From: a virus
Lineage: Duplodnaviria; Caudoviricetes
IMG/VR virus record: IMGVR_UViG_3300023194_000002
Coordinates: 1-64,000 of that record
Length of the DNA stretch: 64,000 nucleotides
Strand: one strand, 5' to 3'
Shown: piece after piece, positions 34,284-48,149 of the stretch
Position numbering within the stretch: the stretch's first letter is position 1
How the letters are laid out: each line of letters opens with the position of its first letter
Program-made: the position numbers and the translations under genes
Notes under the pieces: generated by a model
The model's input: only the letters and a program-made list of their open reading frames with translations
Database searches by the model: none
Told to the model about the DNA's origin: nothing

Positions 34284-36451
34284 GGATTGAGCACAGGCCG
34301 TTGGTTCTTCTGCGCGGGATCCATGGGCCCGAGGATGCCCTCGCGCTCCAGCTGCATCAGTGCACGTTTGGCGCGTGGCTGGCCGATCGACATTTCGCAC
34401 ATCACTGCGCTGACAGACACCCAGCGTTGTCCTCGGACGTACGTCAGTAATCGATTGTGCAGCTCATCATCACTCAGCTGCACGGGCGCTGCTGGTGCAG
34501 CGGGCTCGGTTGTGGTGGGCGTCTCGATGACAGCCTGTTTACCGCTCTGCGCGCGCCATGCGGCGCATACGGCCTTCACCTCGTCCGGGCTGATATACGC
34601 GCTGTGCACGCGCTGCCATTCGGTCGACCCAGGCAGCATGCAGAGGCTATCTCCACGACCGAGTAGCTTTTCGGCGCCGCGGATGTCCATGACGGTCTCG
34701 CTGTCTTTGCCGGATGACACCTTGTAGGTGATACGAGTGGAGAAGTTGGCTTTGATAATGCCAGTAACGACATCCACGCTCGGGCGCTGCGTTGCGAGTA
34801 TGAGGTGCATTCCGGCTGCGCGTCCCTCTGCGGCGATGCGTGAGATCAGCAGTTCAGCCTCTTTTGCCTGAGAGATGAATGACGCGAACTCATCGATCGC
34901 GATCACGACGCGGTGATAGGGCGCATTGGACCGCGCGTTGTATTCAGCGATCTCCGACTCGCCGACTGCAGCCATGGTGGTGTAGCGGCGTTCCATCTCC
35001 TCGAGCGCCCATCGGAGCAATGCAATCCCGTCTGCAGACTGCACCGCGATCGGCGCGAGCAAATGAGGGATGCCAGCGTAGCGCGATAGCTCGACGCGTT
35101 TGGGGTCGATCATCAAGATGCGCATCTCGCTAGGTTTGCGCGTGAGCAACAGTGCCGTGAGCCAGCAGTTGAGGCCGACGCTCTTGCCTGAACCGGTGGT
35201 GCCAGCGACCAACAAGTGTGGAGCGCTGGCGAGATCGAGATACACGGGCGTGCGATCTGGAGCGAGGCCGAGCGGCATGGGGAGTGCGGCCGAGCGGCGA
35301 AGCGCGGTCCACTCGTCGCACTCCATCAGTTCACGCAGCATGACCGTCTGACGATCCTCCTCGTCGAGTGGGACCTCCATTAGGGTGACCTTCCCGCGCT
35401 GAGTTACGTTCACATGCAGCGTGTCGAGCGCCTGCGCGATCTCGGGCGCGAGCTTCTTGATCGTGCTGATTTTCGTTCCTGCAGGTGGCTCGTACTCGTA
35501 ATACGCGAGCATCGGCCCCACGTCGCCGCCAGAGACCTGGCCGCCGATGATCTCGTGCTGGTAGAGCGCACGCGTGATCTTTTTGCGGCCGGCGTCGAGC
35601 GCGCGCTGCTTGCCTGCTTTTGTGCGCTCCTTCGGTGTTGCGAGGCGCCGAATGTCCGGGAGTACGTACACAACGGGAGCAGCGTTTGGCGCTGCAATTC
35701 CCGGTAAATCCTGCTCATCGCTGTCCACCGAGGACTCGATGATGTCCGGACCGTTGTCCACGCTGTTGTCCGGCGCGTAGTCCCTCACATCAACGATGCG
35801 AGCACGCGGCGTCGGCAGCGGAGGGCGCTTCGACGGCGCCGGGTGTGACGCGGGCACCGACTCGCGCACAGTCTCTCCGTGCGTGTCGATCACGGCCTGA
35901 GGCGCGTACACACGGGGCCGTGCAGCAGCGGACGGAGCGGGTGCACGCGTAGACGCAGACAGCGCACGCGCAGCAGCAGCCTGACGCTCGATTTCACGAG
36001 CGCGAGTCCATTCGGAGGCGAACCGACGGGCCATCGAGCCGACGCGCGCGCTCAGCTGCTGCGCATGCGCAGGGCCCATAGCGCGCCGCGCAATTGCCAC
36101 CAGCACGATGGCCAGCAGTACGTAGGCCCCGAGCCCGAAGCCGCGATGAAGCCCCCCGCCCACCATTGAGCCGACGTGCCCAGACGGCGCGCCCAGCAGA
36201 TCGAGCGTCGCGGGCAGGCCCACGAGCGACAGGCTCCACCACACGCGCACGATGCCGGGGCTGCGCTGGCTGACAGTCCACCACGACTCCGCGGCGAGCC
36301 AGCCCACACAGCACCATGTGGCCCAGCCGAATGACGATGATAGCCACGCAGCAAGGCCATCCCCTGCGCGACCGAGTAGGCCGGCCAGCGCTGAGGCGAG
36401 CAGCAGCGCTGTGCCGGCGTAGGTGATTGCGTCCTTGCTGCGGCGGGTCAT
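34280..36451 (-). CDS. ftsK: Full-length FtsK/SpoIIIE-like DNA translocase (N-terminal TMs, motor, C-terminal gamma wHTH)
   Basis: Walker A GTTGSGKS, IAIDEF, HLILATQRPSVDVVTGIIKANF, GAEKLLGRGD; C-terminal DDELH...REGILGP. Confidence 0.93.
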   Translation of the reverse strand: MTRRSKDAITYAGTALLLASALAGLLGRAGDGLAAWLSSSFGWATWCCVGWLAAESWWTVSQRSPGIVRVWWSLSLVGLPATLDLLGAPSGHVGSMVGGGLHRGFGLGAYVLLAIVLVAIARRAMGPAHAQQLSARVGSMARRFASEWTRAREIERQAAAARALSASTRAPAPSAAARPRVYAPQAVIDTHGETVRESVPASHPAPSKRPPLPTPRARIVDVRDYAPDNSVDNGPDIIESSVDSDEQDLPGIAAPNAAPVVYVLPDIRRLATPKERTKAGKQRALDAGRKKITRALYQHEIIGGQVSGGDVGPMLAYYEYEPPAGTKISTIKKLAPEIAQALDTLHVNVTQRGKVTLMEVPLDEEDRQTVMLRELMECDEWTALRRSAALPMPLGLAPDRTPVYLDLASAPHLLVAGTTGSGKSVGLNCWLTALLLTRKPSEMRILMIDPKRVELSRYAGIPHLLAPIAVQSADGIALLRWALEEMERRYTTMAAVGESEIAEYNARSNAPYHRVVIAIDEFASFISQAKEAELLISRIAAEGRAAGMHLILATQRPSVDVVTGIIKANFSTRITYKVSSGKDSETVMDIRGAEKLLGRGDSLCMLPGSTEWQRVHSAYISPDEVKAVCAAWRAQSGKQAVIETPTTTEPAAPAAPVQLSDDELHNRLLTYVRGQRWVSVSAVMCEMSIGQPRAKRALMQLEREGILGPMDPAQKNQRPVLNP

Positions 36452-38911: not shown

Positions 38912-39339
38912 GCAGCGCTGAGCCGCGATTCCTGACGCTGGACGACGTGCTGCGTCTTCATACGTGGCAGCTAGAGCAGTACGGCGGAAGCGCCGGTGTG
39001 CGCGATCAGGGGCTGCTCGAAGCAGCGATCGCGCAGCCTCAGGCAGGCTTTGGCGGTGAATATCTGCACGCTGACATCTGGGAGATGGCCGCGGCATACC
39101 TGTTCCACATCGTACAGAACCATCCCTTCATCGATGGAAACAAGCGCGCGGGCCTATACTCAGCGCTTGTGTTTCTGGACGTGAACAGGCACTCGCCAAT
39201 CGGTTGGTCCAATGCCGAGATGTTCGCGCTCACCGTGCGCGTCGCATCTGGCGAACTCCACAAGCCTGGAGTCGCCGACGCATTTAGGCGCCTGGGGGTG
39301 CTTGAACGTCCCCCCCAGGTTCCTCTCCTCTGCCGATAA
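38908..39339 (+). CDS. doc: Doc/Fic family toxin
   Basis: HPFIDGNKRAG Fic motif; GVRDQGLLEAAIAQP. Confidence 0.9.
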   Translation: MSSAEPRFLTLDDVLRLHTWQLEQYGGSAGVRDQGLLEAAIAQPQAGFGGEYLHADIWEMAAAYLFHIVQNHPFIDGNKRAGLYSALVFLDVNRHSPIGWSNAEMFALTVRVASGELHKPGVADAFRRLGVLERPPQVPLLCR

Positions 39340-39416
39340 TGTGTCTCAAACCCCGTTATAACGGGTTTGGAGACATCTTTCCGACGGAGGAGGGGAATCG
39401 TGCCCGGGGGAGACGT
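39306..39416. repeat. Long imperfect hairpin element, copy 1
   Basis: Near-palindromic core TGTCTCAAACCCCGTTATAACGGGTTTGGAGACA with paired purine/pyrimidine flanks; shares exact blocks with 42596-42703. Confidence 0.8.
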
Positions 39417-39422
39417 GCCGGC

Positions 39423-40538
39423 CTACCGCCCGATGAGCACGCGGCGACGACGGGTCACGGGGTCCACCGTGCTCACCACGCCCGCGGCTTCCAGGCGAGC
39501 CACCAGGGGGTAGACACGGTCCCCCAGCATGAGCTTGCGCTCCAGCCAGGAGGGCGTGAACGCGTGCATCCCCTGGAGCAGCAGGATCGCCTTCGCGTAC
39601 AGGGCATCATCAGCCGCGGTGTAGGTGGGCGTCGACGGCGGAGACATCAGCAGGGGTAACTGCTGTGGGGTTGCCTGGTCAGCGGACGAGGCGAGCGCGG
39701 CTGGGGGAGTGGTTGCTACGGGGACCAGGGCAGGCACCGGTGCAGGGGCAGCCACCCTCTTCATCAGGGCATCCAGTTCATCGACCGACGCGATGCACCA
39801 CTCGCGTGCACCCTGTAGGGCAGCGATGCCAGTCGAGGTGGCCAGTAGGCGATGGCGGATGCGCTGGATGGACTCCACGTCCGGAGCAGGTGCGGGTGGG
39901 GTTGGTGGTGCAGGGGGTGCCGGTGCTCTGACCAGCACGCGGGAGAACGTGCCTCTGGGCGCCAACTCGACGATGCCGTCGCTGATGAGGCGGCGGAAGA
40001 TGCGCTGTCCTCGGCCCGACCCAACGTGGAAGGTGCGCTTCAGCCACTCGCACGAGACCGTCTCTCGCGTCTTCACCACGGCCACGACCTGCTCGTAGAG
40101 GGGGTCGGAGGCGGGCGGAGTCGAAGCCCTGAGCGCCGGGGGAGTGGTGGGCTGGATGGCAGTGTTTGCGGACTGGGCGCGCAGGGCGCGCTTGATCACG
40201 TCTCGTGCCCAAGCGCGGAACGCATGCGCTTCCGGCGACTTCACGCGCCACATCACGTCGATCACGACGTCCGATGCGTAGTGCTTCGTGCGGTAGGCTT
40301 TGCCGTCCGCGGCAGTGCACAAGTATTCCTTGTGAACTGAATCCCAAGCACTTCCATACAGTTCTGAGATCGACCTCAGATGCAGAGCGATGTTCTGCTG
40401 TGTCGTACCGCTCATCTGGGCCATTTGGGCCTGGGTTGGCCAGAGCTCATCTGCCTCCCAGCGCACTGCCACCACGGCGCCGGTCTGCATGCTGTACTCG
40501 TACGTCACGACTTCCGTGGTACCAATCGTCTCACTCAT
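39423..40538 (-). CDS. RhuM-like DNA-binding protein with two FtsK-gamma-like domains
   Basis: LWPTQAQMAQMSGTTQQNIALHL..VKSPEAHAFRAWA; DPLYEQVV..CEWLKRTFHVGSGRGQRI; DDALYAKAI..SWLERKLML. Confidence 0.8.
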   Translation of the reverse strand: MSETIGTTEVVTYEYSMQTGAVVAVRWEADELWPTQAQMAQMSGTTQQNIALHLRSISELYGSAWDSVHKEYLCTAADGKAYRTKHYASDVVIDVMWRVKSPEAHAFRAWARDVIKRALRAQSANTAIQPTTPPALRASTPPASDPLYEQVVAVVKTRETVSCEWLKRTFHVGSGRGQRIFRRLISDGIVELAPRGTFSRVLVRAPAPPAPPTPPAPAPDVESIQRIRHRLLATSTGIAALQGAREWCIASVDELDALMKRVAAPAPVPALVPVATTPPAALASSADQATPQQLPLLMSPPSTPTYTAADDALYAKAILLLQGMHAFTPSWLERKLMLGDRVYPLVARLEAAGVVSTVDPVTRRRRVLIGR

Positions 40539-41971: not shown

Positions 41972-42255
41972 ACGTCCGTTACACGCGTCGCGCAGAGGAC
42001 GATCTCGTTGAGATCGGCGTCTACACGCTGATCGAGTGGGGGCCCGAGCAGCGCGACAAGTACCTCGATCTGCTCGAGGCAGCGTGTGAGCGCATCATTC
42101 CGCGCAACCTCAAGCACGCGCGTGACGTCCCTGGGTACGAGGGACTGCTGCGCTGGCGCTGCGAGCGACATGTGATCGTTTTCCGCCGCGTGTCAGACGG
42201 CATTGAAATTGTGCGTGTGCTCCACGAGCGCATGCTGCCGTCCAAGCATCTATGA
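41968..42255 (+). CDS. parE: ParE/RelE family toxin
   Basis: YTRRAEDDLVEI...WGPEQRDKY...HVIVFR...IVRVLHERM. Confidence 0.9.
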   Translation: MNVRYTRRAEDDLVEIGVYTLIEWGPEQRDKYLDLLEAACERIIPRNLKHARDVPGYEGLLRWRCERHVIVFRRVSDGIEIVRVLHERMLPSKHL

Positions 42256-42584
42256 GGAGACAGGCGCTCTATATGGTGGGAATGGACACTGAGAAGCCTT
42301 CAGTCTACGTCGTCGCGGCAATCGACTACGACGCGCGATGGACCATCGCCGTGTACACGACGTTAGCCGCGGCCGAGCAGCACCAGGCCGAGGCTGAACG
42401 GCTCGTGAGCGAGCTGGCCGAGCTCCGAGGTCGTGGCATTGACACGGTCGAAAGCCTGGAACTCCTACCCAGGGTCAAGAGCGTCCTGAATAGACCATGG
42501 GACCCGGGCACGCCGTCCATCGAGATCGATGAGATGGAGTTGCGCGATGCGGTGCCGTGGTCGGAGCAACCAGCCGGCGAGTGA
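42252..42584 (+). CDS. Hypothetical protein
   Basis: Coupled to parE; VYVV...AVYTTLAAAE. Confidence 0.55.
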   Translation: MRRQALYMVGMDTEKPSVYVVAAIDYDARWTIAVYTTLAAAEQHQAEAERLVSELAELRGRGIDTVESLELLPRVKSVLNRPWDPGTPSIEIDEMELRDAVPWSEQPAGE

Positions 42585-42595
42585 GACCCGCATCT

Positions 42596-42703
42596 CTCCC
42601 CTCCTCCACTCTCCTCTGCCGATTAAGTGTCTCTAGAGCCGTTCTGGTGGGGGTTGAAACACATTTCCGACGGAGGAGACGTGGCGCTGAGCAGGGGGAG
42701 ACG
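42596..42703. repeat. Long imperfect hairpin element, copy 2
   Basis: TCTCCTCTGCCGA, TTTCCGACGGAGGAG and GGGGGAGACG shared with copy 1; first two blocks 54 bp apart in both. Confidence 0.8.
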
Positions 42704-42734
42704 AAAAAATATTGCTGGCGCGCGCCAGCTGTGA

Positions 42735-42840
42735 GATTTATTCGTCTTGCTTGCGCGGCCCCATTGAGGCGTTTCGAACCGCTACCCGCATCCGCGCAAA
42801 TTTGCAGTCATCCGCAGTTCAGCTGCGGCCCCATTGAGAC
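42735..42840 (+). CRISPR. Mini-CRISPR array (degenerate repeat - 36-nt spacer - repeat), type I-G-like repeat, no cas genes in window
   Basis: GCGGCCCCATTGAG at 42755 and 42825 (70-bp period); second repeat GTCATCCGCAGTTCAGCTGCGGCCCCATTGAGAC has a CCGCAG/CTGCGG stem. Confidence 0.75.
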
Positions 42841-42853
42841 ACGCTAAATTGAC

Positions 42854-42883
42854 AAAGCCCGCTCAACTTTGAGCGGGCTTTTT
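42854..42883. terminator. Bidirectional rho-independent terminator
   Basis: AAAGCCCGCTCAA-CT-TTGAGCGGGCTTTTT. Confidence 0.85.
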
Positions 42884-42894
42884 GCGTTATGGGG

Positions 42895-43662
42895 TCACTG
42901 GGATCTCCCTCCGTACCACATCAGCGGAGGTGGTCTCGTCGGCCGGCGAGTGTCGACCCAGCGCCGCCCGATCAGATGCAGCGCTAGGTGGATGCGCCAC
43001 TCGCCGCGGTGCTCCAGGGTCAGCGTGAGCGGCCTCTGCGCGTGCACCACCTCGACGCCCGCGAGCACCAGCCCGGCCCGATCAAGCGTCTCCGCGGTAT
43101 AGCGCTCGATGTACGCGCGCTCCGTCGGCGTGGTCTCGCGTGACTCGCCGGGTCTGATCTCAGCCAACGGCTCCGGGCCGAGTTCGACGGGCCACAGCAC
43201 CATCAGCTCGATGCCGCCGACGCGATCGGCCTCCTTTGCCTGACGTCGTGAGAGCGTCAGGGGCTGCATAATCTGCGCCCGCACTGGTGCCCGCACAGCC
43301 GGCGGTGCGTCGTCATCCGCCGGCCAAAGCCTATCTGCGAGCGTACGAGCGGTCGCGAGATCTCCACCGCGCACCGCGTCCACCAGCTCCATCACGATGT
43401 GCTGGTGGCGCGCTGCGCTCTGCGCTGCTGACTCAGACTGCGTCGCCTGGCCGCACGCATGGCAGCGTCGCAGGCCTTCGCTACGCGGTCGACCACGTGG
43501 CTGACCGGTGATGCGCGCAGGTCGCAGTGCGGCGTAGACCGTGCTGCGTGGGTGGCCCTCATCGATGCGAGCGCGTATCCACGCAGCGCGGTCTGCGCGC
43601 GACATGTGAGCGACCCCGTCGCGTTTGGCGAGGTCGCGGAGTGATGTCGGTGGTGAGGTCAT
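42895..43662 (-). CDS. Hypothetical protein with N-terminal HTH-like region and CxxC
   Basis: SLRDLAKRDG..PRSTVYAAL..GRPR..CHACG. Confidence 0.55.
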   Translation of the reverse strand: MTSPPTSLRDLAKRDGVAHMSRADRAAWIRARIDEGHPRSTVYAALRPARITGQPRGRPRSEGLRRCHACGQATQSESAAQSAARHQHIVMELVDAVRGGDLATARTLADRLWPADDDAPPAVRAPVRAQIMQPLTLSRRQAKEADRVGGIELMVLWPVELGPEPLAEIRPGESRETTPTERAYIERYTAETLDRAGLVLAGVEVVHAQRPLTLTLEHRGEWRIHLALHLIGRRWVDTRRPTRPPPLMWYGGRSQ

Positions 43663-46351: not shown

Positions 46352-46543
46352 GTAGACACGGGACAACCCTCCGCGTGTCCACTCAGTGGCCAATCAGGCC
46401 GCTAACGCTTCAGAATCACTGGCGTTTCTTACGTCTGTTAATCGAATGGTCCTAGGTTCGAGTCCTAGTTCCGGAGCTAAATGATTTCGTGTGGTTAGGT
46501 CGGGGAACGTCCCTGGTTTCGGTGGACACTTCAGTGGACACTT
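46352..46543. mobile_element. attP: core matching the 3' half of a tRNA-Asn(GTT) (46435-46477), with arm-type repeats
   Basis: CT-GTT-AA loop, CTAGG-TTCGAGT-CCTAG T-arm, TTCCGGA-G acceptor; GTGGACACTT at 46522 and 46534, inverse GTGTCCAC at 46375, GTAGACAC at 46352. Confidence 0.85.
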
Positions 46544-48149
46544 TCCCCTGCCTCAGTATCTGCTCCAGCGCCGCGCGGATGTTGTCGCGCCGCGCATGTG
46601 GATAGGCTGCGAGAATGGTGTCCAGTGGATCCGGCGCTGTCTCGGATTGTGCCCTGGATGGCTGCACACCAGCGGCCAGCTGGGCCTTGGCATCCGTCGT
46701 CACGCTGGCGTAGCGATCCTGCGTCACCTTGACGTCGCTGTGGCCGATGAACTCGCTGACGTCGCGGATATCCCAGCGCACGCCCCATGTCCCTGAGAGC
46801 AGATGCGTCGCGGCCGTGTCACGAAAATCGTGGAAGCGGCGACGGTTTTCAATGCCGAGCTTCGTGACCCATCCGGGCTTGATTCTGCGCTCGCGGGTCA
46901 CTGGGTCGCGGTAGGGGGTGTCCGTCCATCCAAAATCATAGCCACACGCGAACATGCGATCGCGCAGCTCGTAACGACGATCGGCGCGCGCGCGCGCTTC
47001 CGATCGAAGTACCTCGATATGATGGAGATTGGTCGCAAACCCGTCTGCCTGAGCGCGTGCGAGTAAATCGCGATTCGTCAGGTCGGGGTGACGCGTCACA
47101 TATTTGGCCAACTCCCCGAGCGCGCGTTTTGGCGCCGCATCGGACGCCGCGAATATGAGTCCTGTGCCAGGCTCCCCTTTGTGTTGCCACCAGCGGTGCA
47201 GCAGACGCGCAGCCATCGGAATCAGCGCCTGGATGCGGTCCTGTCCATTTTTTGTCTCGTCGTGCCAGCTCGTCTCTACGAGCCACACCTGCCCGGTCCA
47301 GTCGGGCGCCTGTGTCCACTCGACACGATTCCAGCTGTGACGCGGGCCGGCAGGTGCAATGCGCTCCCAGCGCTGGCTGACGATCTCACCCTTGCGTAGG
47401 CCCTGCATGACCGTGACCGAGAGCGCGACGCGATAGAAAAACGGCACGTGCTCGCACTCGACCAACTGCTCGAGGTCATGCCGTGGAATGCCTGTGCGAT
47501 CGGCGCATGCCTCACAGTAAAAGATCCGATCGCAGTCGCTTTGCGGCAAAAAGTCTAACCGTGTGCGGCTGCGCTTCTCCGCCTTGGTGCGAAGGCGACC
47601 GGTGAGTTTGTGGCGCTTGTTTGGGAGCTCGACGCCCTCAGCGGGATTACTGTCAATCAGACGTGGCGAGCGCTGTTTGGCTGCGTTTAACGCCGTGCGA
47701 ACGATCGACAACGCCTGCTTTGCGTAACTGCGGGCTATGGGCGCGTTGAGCGTCACCAGCGTTCGTTCACCGCGATGCAGCTCGGAGCGCGTAGCGGGTA
47801 TAGTGGGCAACACATTCGACCACGCGGTCACGTCGTCTGGCGTGATGTCCTCGATCGGGAAGTCGAGGAACGGACACGAGCGTGCGATTAGCGCGTCCCA
47901 TGTGCTGCGATAGCTATGCGAGTAGTCATGATCCTTGAGCCAGACCTCACCCCACTGACGCAGGGTGATCCCAGCGTTCACGTCATTCGACTGCGCGATC
48001 GCTTCGCGCGTGAGCTTCGCCTCCTCTTCGGAGTCGAAGAACTTCGACACGTCGCGCCCGTTGCTACGGATGCGCAGTCGCCACTTTTGTTTTTGAGGGT
48101 CCCAGGATACCGACCCTGCGCCGTGACGGCGTCTATTAGAGCCGGTCAT
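46452..48149 (-). CDS. int: Tyrosine integrase (long, with insertions)
   Basis: GLRKGEI, FHDFRDTAATHLL, IGHSDVKVTQDRYA; N-terminal arm-binding GSVSWDPQKQKWRLRI. Confidence 0.9.
   Translation of the reverse strand: MTGSNRRRHGAGSVSWDPQKQKWRLRIRSNGRDVSKFFDSEEEAKLTREAIAQSNDVNAGITLRQWGEVWLKDHDYSHSYRSTWDALIARSCPFLDFPIEDITPDDVTAWSNVLPTIPATRSELHRGERTLVTLNAPIARSYAKQALSIVRTALNAAKQRSPRLIDSNPAEGVELPNKRHKLTGRLRTKAEKRSRTRLDFLPQSDCDRIFYCEACADRTGIPRHDLEQLVECEHVPFFYRVALSVTVMQGLRKGEIVSQRWERIAPAGPRHSWNRVEWTQAPDWTGQVWLVETSWHDETKNGQDRIQALIPMAARLLHRWWQHKGEPGTGLIFAASDAAPKRALGELAKYVTRHPDLTNRDLLARAQADGFATNLHHIEVLRSEARARADRRYELRDRMFACGYDFGWTDTPYRDPVTRERRIKPGWVTKLGIENRRRFHDFRDTAATHLLSGTWGVRWDIRDVSEFIGHSDVKVTQDRYASVTTDAKAQLAAGVQPSRAQSETAPDPLDTILAAYPHARRDNIRAALEQILRQGKVSTEVSTETRDVPRPNHTKSFSSGTRTRT

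Follow-up and report, generated by a model that had tools for sequence, protein, structure and literature searches.

A cas-less, phage-borne array of type I-G CRISPR repeats with a single spacer probably specifies one guide RNA for host CRISPR machinery

The window, that is, the whole 64-kb stretch of DNA considered here, is the first part of a complete phage genome record of 84,209 bp with 121-bp direct terminal repeats and a G+C content of approximately 60%. The genes and other features found at the locus of interest are listed in Table 1. When the ORFs lying next to this locus were compared with known protein families and solved structures, no matches were obtained, and no known acr genes were found nearby. 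The 110-aa ORF, for its part, yielded no homologue among 5.8 billion proteins and could be assigned to no family; its location makes it a candidate anti-defense or regulatory protein. Placed between the ParDE module and the integrase arm, the locus belongs to the accessory/lysogeny region of a temperate phage.

The portal and capsid proteins of the phage share only some 30% identity with those of known phages, which infect a mixed set of hosts, while portal homologues at about 50% identity were found on metagenome contigs. A look-up of the capsid protein in a protein atlas led to viral clusters only. Likewise, no close relative was found when either the flanking proteins or 10 kb of DNA served as query.

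Two further features were seen in this part of the genome. An imperfect hairpin element of ~110 nt, with conserved arms CTCCTCTGCCGAT..GTGTCTC and the complement TTTCCGACGGAGGAG, is present in two copies lying 3.3 kb apart, at 39290-39440 and 42585-42700, the second of which stops just short of the repeat-containing unit. The copies bracket a RhuM/FtsK-gamma protein, small ORFs, the ParDE pair and the orphan 110-aa ORF, and could represent either a cassette boundary or a pair of regulatory sites. In addition, ARAGORN calls a tRNA-Val with anticodon AAC at 35759-35849, in the FtsK-like region, which at 91 nt is unusually long.

The unit itself is organized around GCGGCCCCATTGAG, a sequence that appears at 42755-42768 and 42825-42838, 70 nt from start to start, and nowhere else in the phage genome. 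An initial annotation of the window had pointed to two copies of this type at a 70-bp period, and their positions are as described there. The second copy belongs to a full 34-nt stem-loop repeat, as had likewise been proposed and as both folding and a covariance model (see below) now indicate. Its hairpin, at 42812-42828, consists of 7 bp, including one U.G pair, of an GTCATCCGCAG-type stem and a 3-nt loop, followed by CCCC at 42829-42832 and an 8-nt handle, ATTGAGAC, at 42833-42840. The first copy, here termed psiR1, had been described as retaining only the 3' half of the repeat. The 3' part is indeed kept; however, psiR1 spans 34 nt like the second copy and lines up with it in register, its hairpin having decayed. 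Having lost its hairpin, psiR1 adopts no stable fold, although the tail CGGCCCC and the 8-nt handle ATTGAGGC (42763-42770) are kept, with the last 14 nt, handle included, being intact in the form of a 14-nt exact repeat, and its 5' flank, TTATTCG, is still similar to TCATCCG. The handles of the two copies together read ATTGAG(A/G)C. With a period of 70 and a repeat of 34 nt, the spacer measures 36 nt, and the 10-bp palindrome that had been noticed within it is present. As such, the locus offers what defines a CRISPR array, namely, two repeats at a period of 70 separated by a unique spacer of typical length, with the first copy being degenerate.

Table 1. Positions of the features found at and around the phage mini-array (coordinates refer to the window).
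Feature	Position	Strand	Remarks
Mini-array site			310-nt gap separating convergent genes (ORF map)
ParD-ParE pair, then orphan 110-aa ORF	gene block stops at 42584	plus	upstream of mini-array
110-aa ORF	42252-42584	plus	same strand as mini-array, directly upstream
GC palindrome	42714-42729	minus	perfect, 16 nt; terminator-like, AATATTTTTT follows on minus strand; left boundary of unit (terminator scan)
Degenerate first repeat (psiR1)	42737-42770	plus	34 nt, in register with second copy (covariance model)
Predicted mature crRNA	42763-42832	plus	70 nt; would comprise 8-nt handle, 36-nt spacer and 26-nt 3' part, stopping 4 nt past hairpin
Spacer	42771-42806	plus	36 nt; palindrome GCAAATTTGC at 42796-42805
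Intact type I-G repeat	42807-42840	plus	5-nt flank, 7-bp hairpin, CCCC, 8-nt handle
Linker	42841-42853	plus	13 nt, ACGCTAAATTGAC; repeat to terminator; TTGACA when read on into 42854
Bidirectional intrinsic terminator	42854-42885	both	13-nt perfect arms, A-run before, T-run after
255-aa ORF	42895-43662	minus	no family found; convergent with mini-array
Four further family-less ORFs, then tyrosine integrase	46452-48149 (integrase)		beyond 255-aa ORF

The terminator that had been placed 13 bp past the second repeat is a strong hairpin followed by a T-run (-21.8 kcal/mol, z -4.9 by folding), for which Rfam returned terminator-type alignments. Its description as belonging to the mini-array has to be amended, however, since the hairpin is flanked by an A-run as well as a T-run and so also serves the convergent 255-aa gene, the terminator being common to both transcription units. 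The AT-rich stretch at 42704-42713, which had been noted as preceding the unit, corresponds to the T-tail of the minus-strand terminator-like palindrome and is not evidently a leader. The unit is thereby delimited as a 125-nt island with a hairpin terminator or terminator-like hairpin on either side. A scan for a sigma-70-type promoter for the unit detected none, and the leader motif of natural arrays (of the CTCGCAA type) is absent from it; the unit may have a promoter of its own or may be reached by transcription coming from the ParDE operon. Neither the rest of the genome nor the loci fetched for comparison contain a match to the linker, and the possibility that these 13 nt and the terminator constitute a second pseudo-spacer was rejected, as no match was found anywhere. 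In the predicted primary transcript, TTGCGCGG (42750-42757, just 5' of the first tail) pairs without mismatch with CCGCGCAA (42791-42798, in the 3' part of the spacer), such that the first handle and the greater part of the spacer lie inside a long-range helix; this may be due to chance in a G+C-rich sequence or may affect 5' maturation.

To assign the repeats to a CRISPR type, natural arrays were sought in genomes and metagenomes. When one genome per species was searched for paired copies of the 12-nt tail CCCCATTGAGAC, seven loci came to light, all of which are true arrays of 36-nt repeats and which adjoin genes encoding Cas4g/Cas1g (735 bits) and Csb2, signature genes of type I-G. Two of these loci (L003 and L006) stem from a single genome, G001, on which no claim made here rests. 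Among 401 genomes sampled from the phylum to which one I-G genome, a Bradyrhizobium MAG, belongs, none contained a repeat with the phage stem. Metagenomes were scanned with the phage stem and tail as query (CCGCAG, 3-9 nt, CTGCGGCCCCATTGA; 21 specified bases), and this combination was present on at least 120 contigs, with three or more copies at regular spacing on at least 80 of them. The repeats of these arrays end in CCCCATTGAAGC, and the nearest natural repeats among the matches listed are identical to the phage repeat at 30 of 34 positions. One array with such a repeat, on contig L108, adjoins genes for Csb1/Cas7g, Csb2 (282 bits), Cas3g (738 bits) and an I-G Cas3-extension protein, thus providing the likeness to a real I-G repeat on which the initial annotation had staked its reading.

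A covariance model gave the same answer. Because circularity was to be avoided, the model was built from 13 I-G repeats, all with stems unlike that of the phage, the underlying alignment showing compensatory changes in the stem, and was run with filters off and on both strands. In the 64-kb window, the intact repeat ranked first (29.8 bits, E 3.4e-6) and psiR1 second (21.1 bits, E 1e-3), followed by a match of 12.2 bits (E 0.34); in the remaining 20 kb of the genome, nothing was found. It is this model, and not a 16-mer search allowing three mismatches, that excludes a chance origin of the two copies. Together with the natural arrays found beside I-G cas genes, it bears out the earlier proposal that the repeats are type I-G-like.

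An origin unrelated to CRISPR, be it a chance repeat, a small protein gene or some other small RNA, was also considered, since a mechanically called 96-aa ORF at 42557-42847 spans the region and since Rfam returned no match above threshold there, CRISPR-DR16 having aligned with the intact repeat end to end but with 17.5 bits, under the threshold of 35. The ORF, however, has no homologue, with not even its own translation being present in the collection of 5.8 billion proteins, whereas the 21 specified stem and tail bases are found as arrays on at least 80 contigs and the model gave an E of 3e-6. In light of the metagenome arrays, the cas neighbors of the L108 array and the covariance model, this reading is effectively refuted.

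The fold of the intact repeat, comprising a 7-bp stem and a 12-nt single-stranded tail, is like that of the L108 repeat and can be compared with what is known of repeat processing. In Thioalkalivibrio sulfidiphilus, the 36-nt repeat is cleaved by Csb2 at a site 4 nt 3' of a 7-bp hairpin; an 8-nt 5' handle results, and the enzyme remains bound to the hairpin (10.1101/2022.08.08.503147). Read from its sequence and predicted fold, the layout of the phage repeat (7-bp hairpin, 4 nt, 8-nt handle) matches this cleavage geometry, and the tail CC(C/T)CATTGAAGC with its 8-nt handle, which had been named in the initial annotation, agrees both with the fetched arrays and with the published cleavage site. 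Canonical I-G arrays, as in T. sulfidiphilus (10.1101/2022.08.08.503147) and L108, thus share with the phage unit the 7-bp hairpin and 12-nt tail, the 8-nt handle and the 36-nt spacer. Unlike them, the phage unit is phage-borne, has a single spacer, a repeat of 34 rather than 36 nt and the handles ATTGAGGC/ATTGAGAC, and is accompanied by neither cas genes nor a recognizable leader.

Natural arrays of the phage-stem family (among the at least 80 array contigs) have periods of 71-74 with 36-nt repeats, such that their spacers measure 35-38 nt, 36 nt being the commonest among the matches listed. Both phage handles depart from the commonest handle, ATTGAAGC, at one or two positions. The exact phage repeat was found neither in IMG/VR nor in the metagenomes, no array combining the phage stem with the handle ATTGAGAC was found in the metagenomes, and a two-tail scan of IMG/VR with a GAGRC tail returned only coding tandem repeats.

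The initial annotation had noted that no cas genes lie in the window. When profile searches were extended to the complete phage genome, again nothing was found with profiles for Csb1, Csb2, Cas3g and Cas1, nor with that for TnpB/Cas12 (PF07282), to which control genomes did respond. A phage-encoded effector, comprising Csb1, Csb2, Cas3g, Cas1 or TnpB, was thus rejected, as was the possibility of a TnpB/Cas12-coupled phage mini-array, no such signature having been found genome-wide. Given that the phage carries no Cas or TnpB gene, any effector must be that of the host. Moreover, since cas genes, a leader motif and a detected promoter are all lacking, the unit is an orphan mini-array rather than a CRISPR-Cas locus. 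Taken together, the unit, as judged from its sequence, is a cas-less, phage-borne, one-spacer array of type I-G repeats.

Similar units exist on other viral contigs. A scan of IMG/VR for two I-G-type tails revealed 53 viral contigs with full arrays as well as many two-repeat mini-arrays. Twelve of these contigs (L137, L140, L144, L149, L151-L153, L158, L159, L161, L175 and L185) form one mini-array family, with conserved flanks, TTGACA just upstream and four different spacers. In this family, as in the phage and in L178, the last repeat ends in ATTGAGAC and not in ATTGAAGC, and L178 displays the same GAAGC to GAGAC change as does the phage. A hairpin-less first repeat followed by an intact second repeat is seen again elsewhere, among the viral contigs in L164/L165 and L162 and among those from metagenomes in L027 and L055/L060. 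A terminator hairpin directly after the last repeat is also seen in L160 and L166.

The recurrence of this layout bears on the possibility that the unit is a decaying passenger, that is, a fragment of a host I-G array gained by illegitimate recombination and now devoid of function. Repeats recombine readily, and this reading would account for one repeat being badly degenerate, for both handles being off consensus, for a hairpin that falls 2 nt short of that in natural repeats of 36 nt and for the failure to find a promoter, a target or a conserved relative. The decay is, however, non-random: 14 nt of tail and handle are kept upstream and hairpin and tail downstream, in register and separated by a 36-nt spacer, such that the upstream copy retains the handle and the downstream copy the hairpin, which is as little as a single crRNA requires. 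Natural arrays have no end of this appearance, their ends decaying in the opposite manner. In addition, unrelated contigs, viral as well as metagenomic, display this layout again, and terminators neatly bracket the unit. Such non-random conservation, with the handle upstream, the hairpin downstream and the spacing correct, argues for a working guide, and the layout, as far as can be read from the sequence, argues for selection rather than for a captured array end. A functionless passenger is accordingly considered unlikely.

On this basis, the phage probably makes one guide RNA for host CRISPR machinery. In the scheme proposed, a plus-strand RNA of approximately 140 nt would be transcribed from near 42745 to the terminator at 42885. 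Host Csb2 would bind the hairpin of the second repeat, cut 4 nt past the stem and remain on the 3' hairpin, with psiR1, as is evident in the sequence, contributing only the 8-nt 5' handle. For the 5' end, the transcription start or host RNases, and not Csb2, would have to be responsible, this being the weakest step of the scheme. The resulting 70-nt crRNA-like RNA, bearing a full 36-nt guide, would then load into the type I-G Cascade of the host. Its most likely use would be to direct Cascade-Cas3 at a competing phage or plasmid, amounting to superinfection exclusion by the lysogen. The decay of psiR1 would further stabilize the unit against repeat-repeat recombination and against insertion of spacers by the host. 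The same layout is found in the psiR1/psiR2 of CreA, where degenerate repeats resist recombination (PMC9458426).

Guidance of host I-G Cascade against a rival element by this single-spacer mini-array is the reading that is tentatively preferred here, although it falls somewhat short of being probable. In its favor, the twelve-contig viral family combines conserved flanks with four different spacers, the phage unit is bounded by hairpin terminators with the same layout recurring independently in viral and metagenome contigs, and the setting beside ParDE and the integrase would fit expression from a prophage. On the other hand, psiR1 lacks the hairpin that is bound by T. sulfidiphilus Csb2, leaving formation of the 5' end unexplained, no sigma-70-type promoter was detected, the handles are off consensus, with no metagenome array combining the phage stem and ATTGAGAC, and no close relative of the phage was found.

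The search for a target is also pertinent here. In agreement with the earlier statement that the window contains no self-target, none was detected in the phage genome even at up to 10 mismatches. Comparison of the spacer with 50,697 phage records and 72,556 plasmids revealed no protospacer (best E 0.4), nor did a search of IMG/VR with the full spacer or its first 23 nt as query and every sixth base left free. As such, no protospacer with a PAM in another virus or a plasmid, as expected of inter-virus conflict, was found in the phage, plasmid and IMG/VR collections, a result which, given the limits of the databases and of the mismatch tolerance, means that no target was found and not that a target is absent. 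In the reverse direction, none of 1,618 unique I-G spacers from the retrieved arrays matches the phage, the longest match, 16 nt, being at chance level. A CATCCGC sequence shared by the spacer and the start of the repeat was judged to be a chance 7-mer match.

The PAM published for type I-G is TTN. One IMG/VR contig, L147, holds an I-G spacer at the contig end (~7935) for which a perfect protospacer and one with 4 mismatches are present in the same contig, near reverse-strand 1692 and 2035; both are preceded by TTG, in agreement with the published PAM. The contig reflects either self-targeting or a host array co-assembled with a prophage.

A guide of this type could instead serve regulation, as do the viral crlRNAs or 'Cracrs'. 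Here, I-G Cascade would bind, without cutting, on the strength of a match of only 9-15 PAM-proximal nt, and the presumed targets would be the promoter of a cas operon, of a CRISPR-guarding toxin or of another defense gene, which would be silenced. Indeed, the order of degenerate psiR1, spacer, repeat and terminator is the layout of host CreA/CreR and of viral Cracr, and targets such as operators or promoters would be in keeping with the spacer palindrome and with the TTGACA just past the second repeat. In CreA/CreR and Cracr, as in the phage unit, psiR1 is degenerate with the handle kept, psiR2 is better kept and a terminator follows directly (PMC9458426; 10.1101/2024.10.29.618823). Cracrs are, however, defined by likeness to host CreR/CreA and at least nine PAM-proximal matches (10.1101/2024.10.29.618823), none of which was found here. 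Specifically, the spacer seed (first 9 nt) has six matches in the roughly 120 fetched I-G loci, as compared to 4.4 expected, and counts in five I-G genomes are likewise at chance level, in no instance with a TTN PAM; these loci and genomes are stand-ins for the host's own. A 12/13 seed match in L108 was rejected, given that the PAM there is GGC, that the site is probably coding and that as many such matches are expected by chance. Unlike CreA/CreR and Cracr, moreover, the phage spacer is full length, where known viral regulatory spacers are often 2-3 nt shorter, no partial match to a cas or toxin promoter was found, and the types for which Cracrs are reported, V-A, I-B, I-C, I-E and I-F, do not include I-G. 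Finally, the unit lies in the lysogeny/accessory region and not in an early operon. Regulation is hence judged to be about as improbable as the passenger reading. In a stronger version, which is more doubtful still, the unit would be the first viral guide of type I-G with a regulatory or anti-CRISPR role; psiR1 having no hairpin, 5' maturation would proceed independently of Csb2, and the RNA would reprogram Cascade to silence a host defense promoter. The hairpin-less psiR1 and the ATTGAGAC tail, which recur in unrelated viral I-G mini-arrays, would in that case be adaptations of a class of viral I-G guides in its own right.

According to published surveys, most spacers of viral mini-arrays are directed against other viruses; a smaller share are copies of regulatory guides of the host. 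Because viral mini-array spacers mostly target viruses and because regulatory guides are not reported for I-G, guidance against a rival element is ranked first. Regulation and decay follow jointly as unlikely readings, then comes the RNA decoy considered below, which is less likely than either, and, at the very end, a non-CRISPR origin, to which almost no credence is given.

Virus-borne CRISPR mini-arrays were reportedly described in 2019 by Faure et al. and, in the same year, by Medvedeva et al. A later survey counts 835 viral mini-arrays with two repeats (10.1101/2023.03.03.530964). Like these, the phage unit is cas-less, contains one spacer and host-type repeats, lies in a viral accessory region and presumably relies on host Cas proteins; unlike them, it is of subtype I-G, its first repeat lacks a hairpin and no target was found in a related virus. 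The phage unit also recalls RNA anti-CRISPRs (Racrs), being an intergenic, phage-borne copy of a host repeat, and the I-G examples of Racrs end, as it does, in a CCTCATTGAAGC-type tail. The supplement of Camara-Wilpert et al. (2023; PMC10651486) includes, among its Racr candidates, solitary repeats of IMG/VR viruses typed as I-G; Racr activity was tested only for I-C, I-E, I-F and V-A.

Were the unit such a decoy, Csb2 and Cas7g would be titrated by the repeat hairpin and trapped in aberrant complexes, and the spacer would be of no consequence. The listed solitary I-G repeats and the off-consensus handles are in line with this, and a second Csb2 product, containing the handle, the 13 nt and the terminator hairpin, would look like a crippled crRNA. 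Still, a decoy has no need of a second handle located exactly one spacer length upstream, and it is in this partner handle that the phage unit differs from Racrs; the spacing and handle of psiR1 fit a real guide. The published definition classes a repeat as a mini-array when a partial partner lies no more than 100 nt away, and since the partial repeat of the phage lies 70 nt upstream, inside this 100-bp limit, the unit is a mini-array rather than a solitary repeat (PMC10651486). Nor was a known acr gene found nearby, and no I-G Racr is known to have been tested experimentally. A decoy is thus held to be quite improbable.

Solitary repeats and mini-arrays of type I-G have been catalogued in viruses before, and the phage unit adds one member, extending a known phenomenon to one more phage and leaving the overall picture unchanged. 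Some modest additional interest lies in the recurrence of the handle-only first repeat, which, in combination with an intact second repeat, suggests that mobile elements have repeatedly come to carry a single stable guide in this form. To our knowledge, type I-G is the least studied of the type I systems, and we know of no phage RNA acting on type I-G that has been tested experimentally. Compact (~140 nt) and well bounded, the unit could show whether an I-G guide matures without an upstream hairpin.

Two other arrangements of I-G repeats were encountered in the course of the contig scans. In contig L116, a solitary I-G repeat ending in ATTGAGGC is found on the reverse strand at 1777-2000, directly after an array that, according to its repeat sequence, is I-E-like. 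In the metagenome contig L044, at 2400-2600, a two-repeat I-G mini-array lies between perfect inverted repeats of ~27 nt (TGTCAAATGTCAAGATGTGACCCCAAT and its complement), an arrangement like that of a miniature mobile element.
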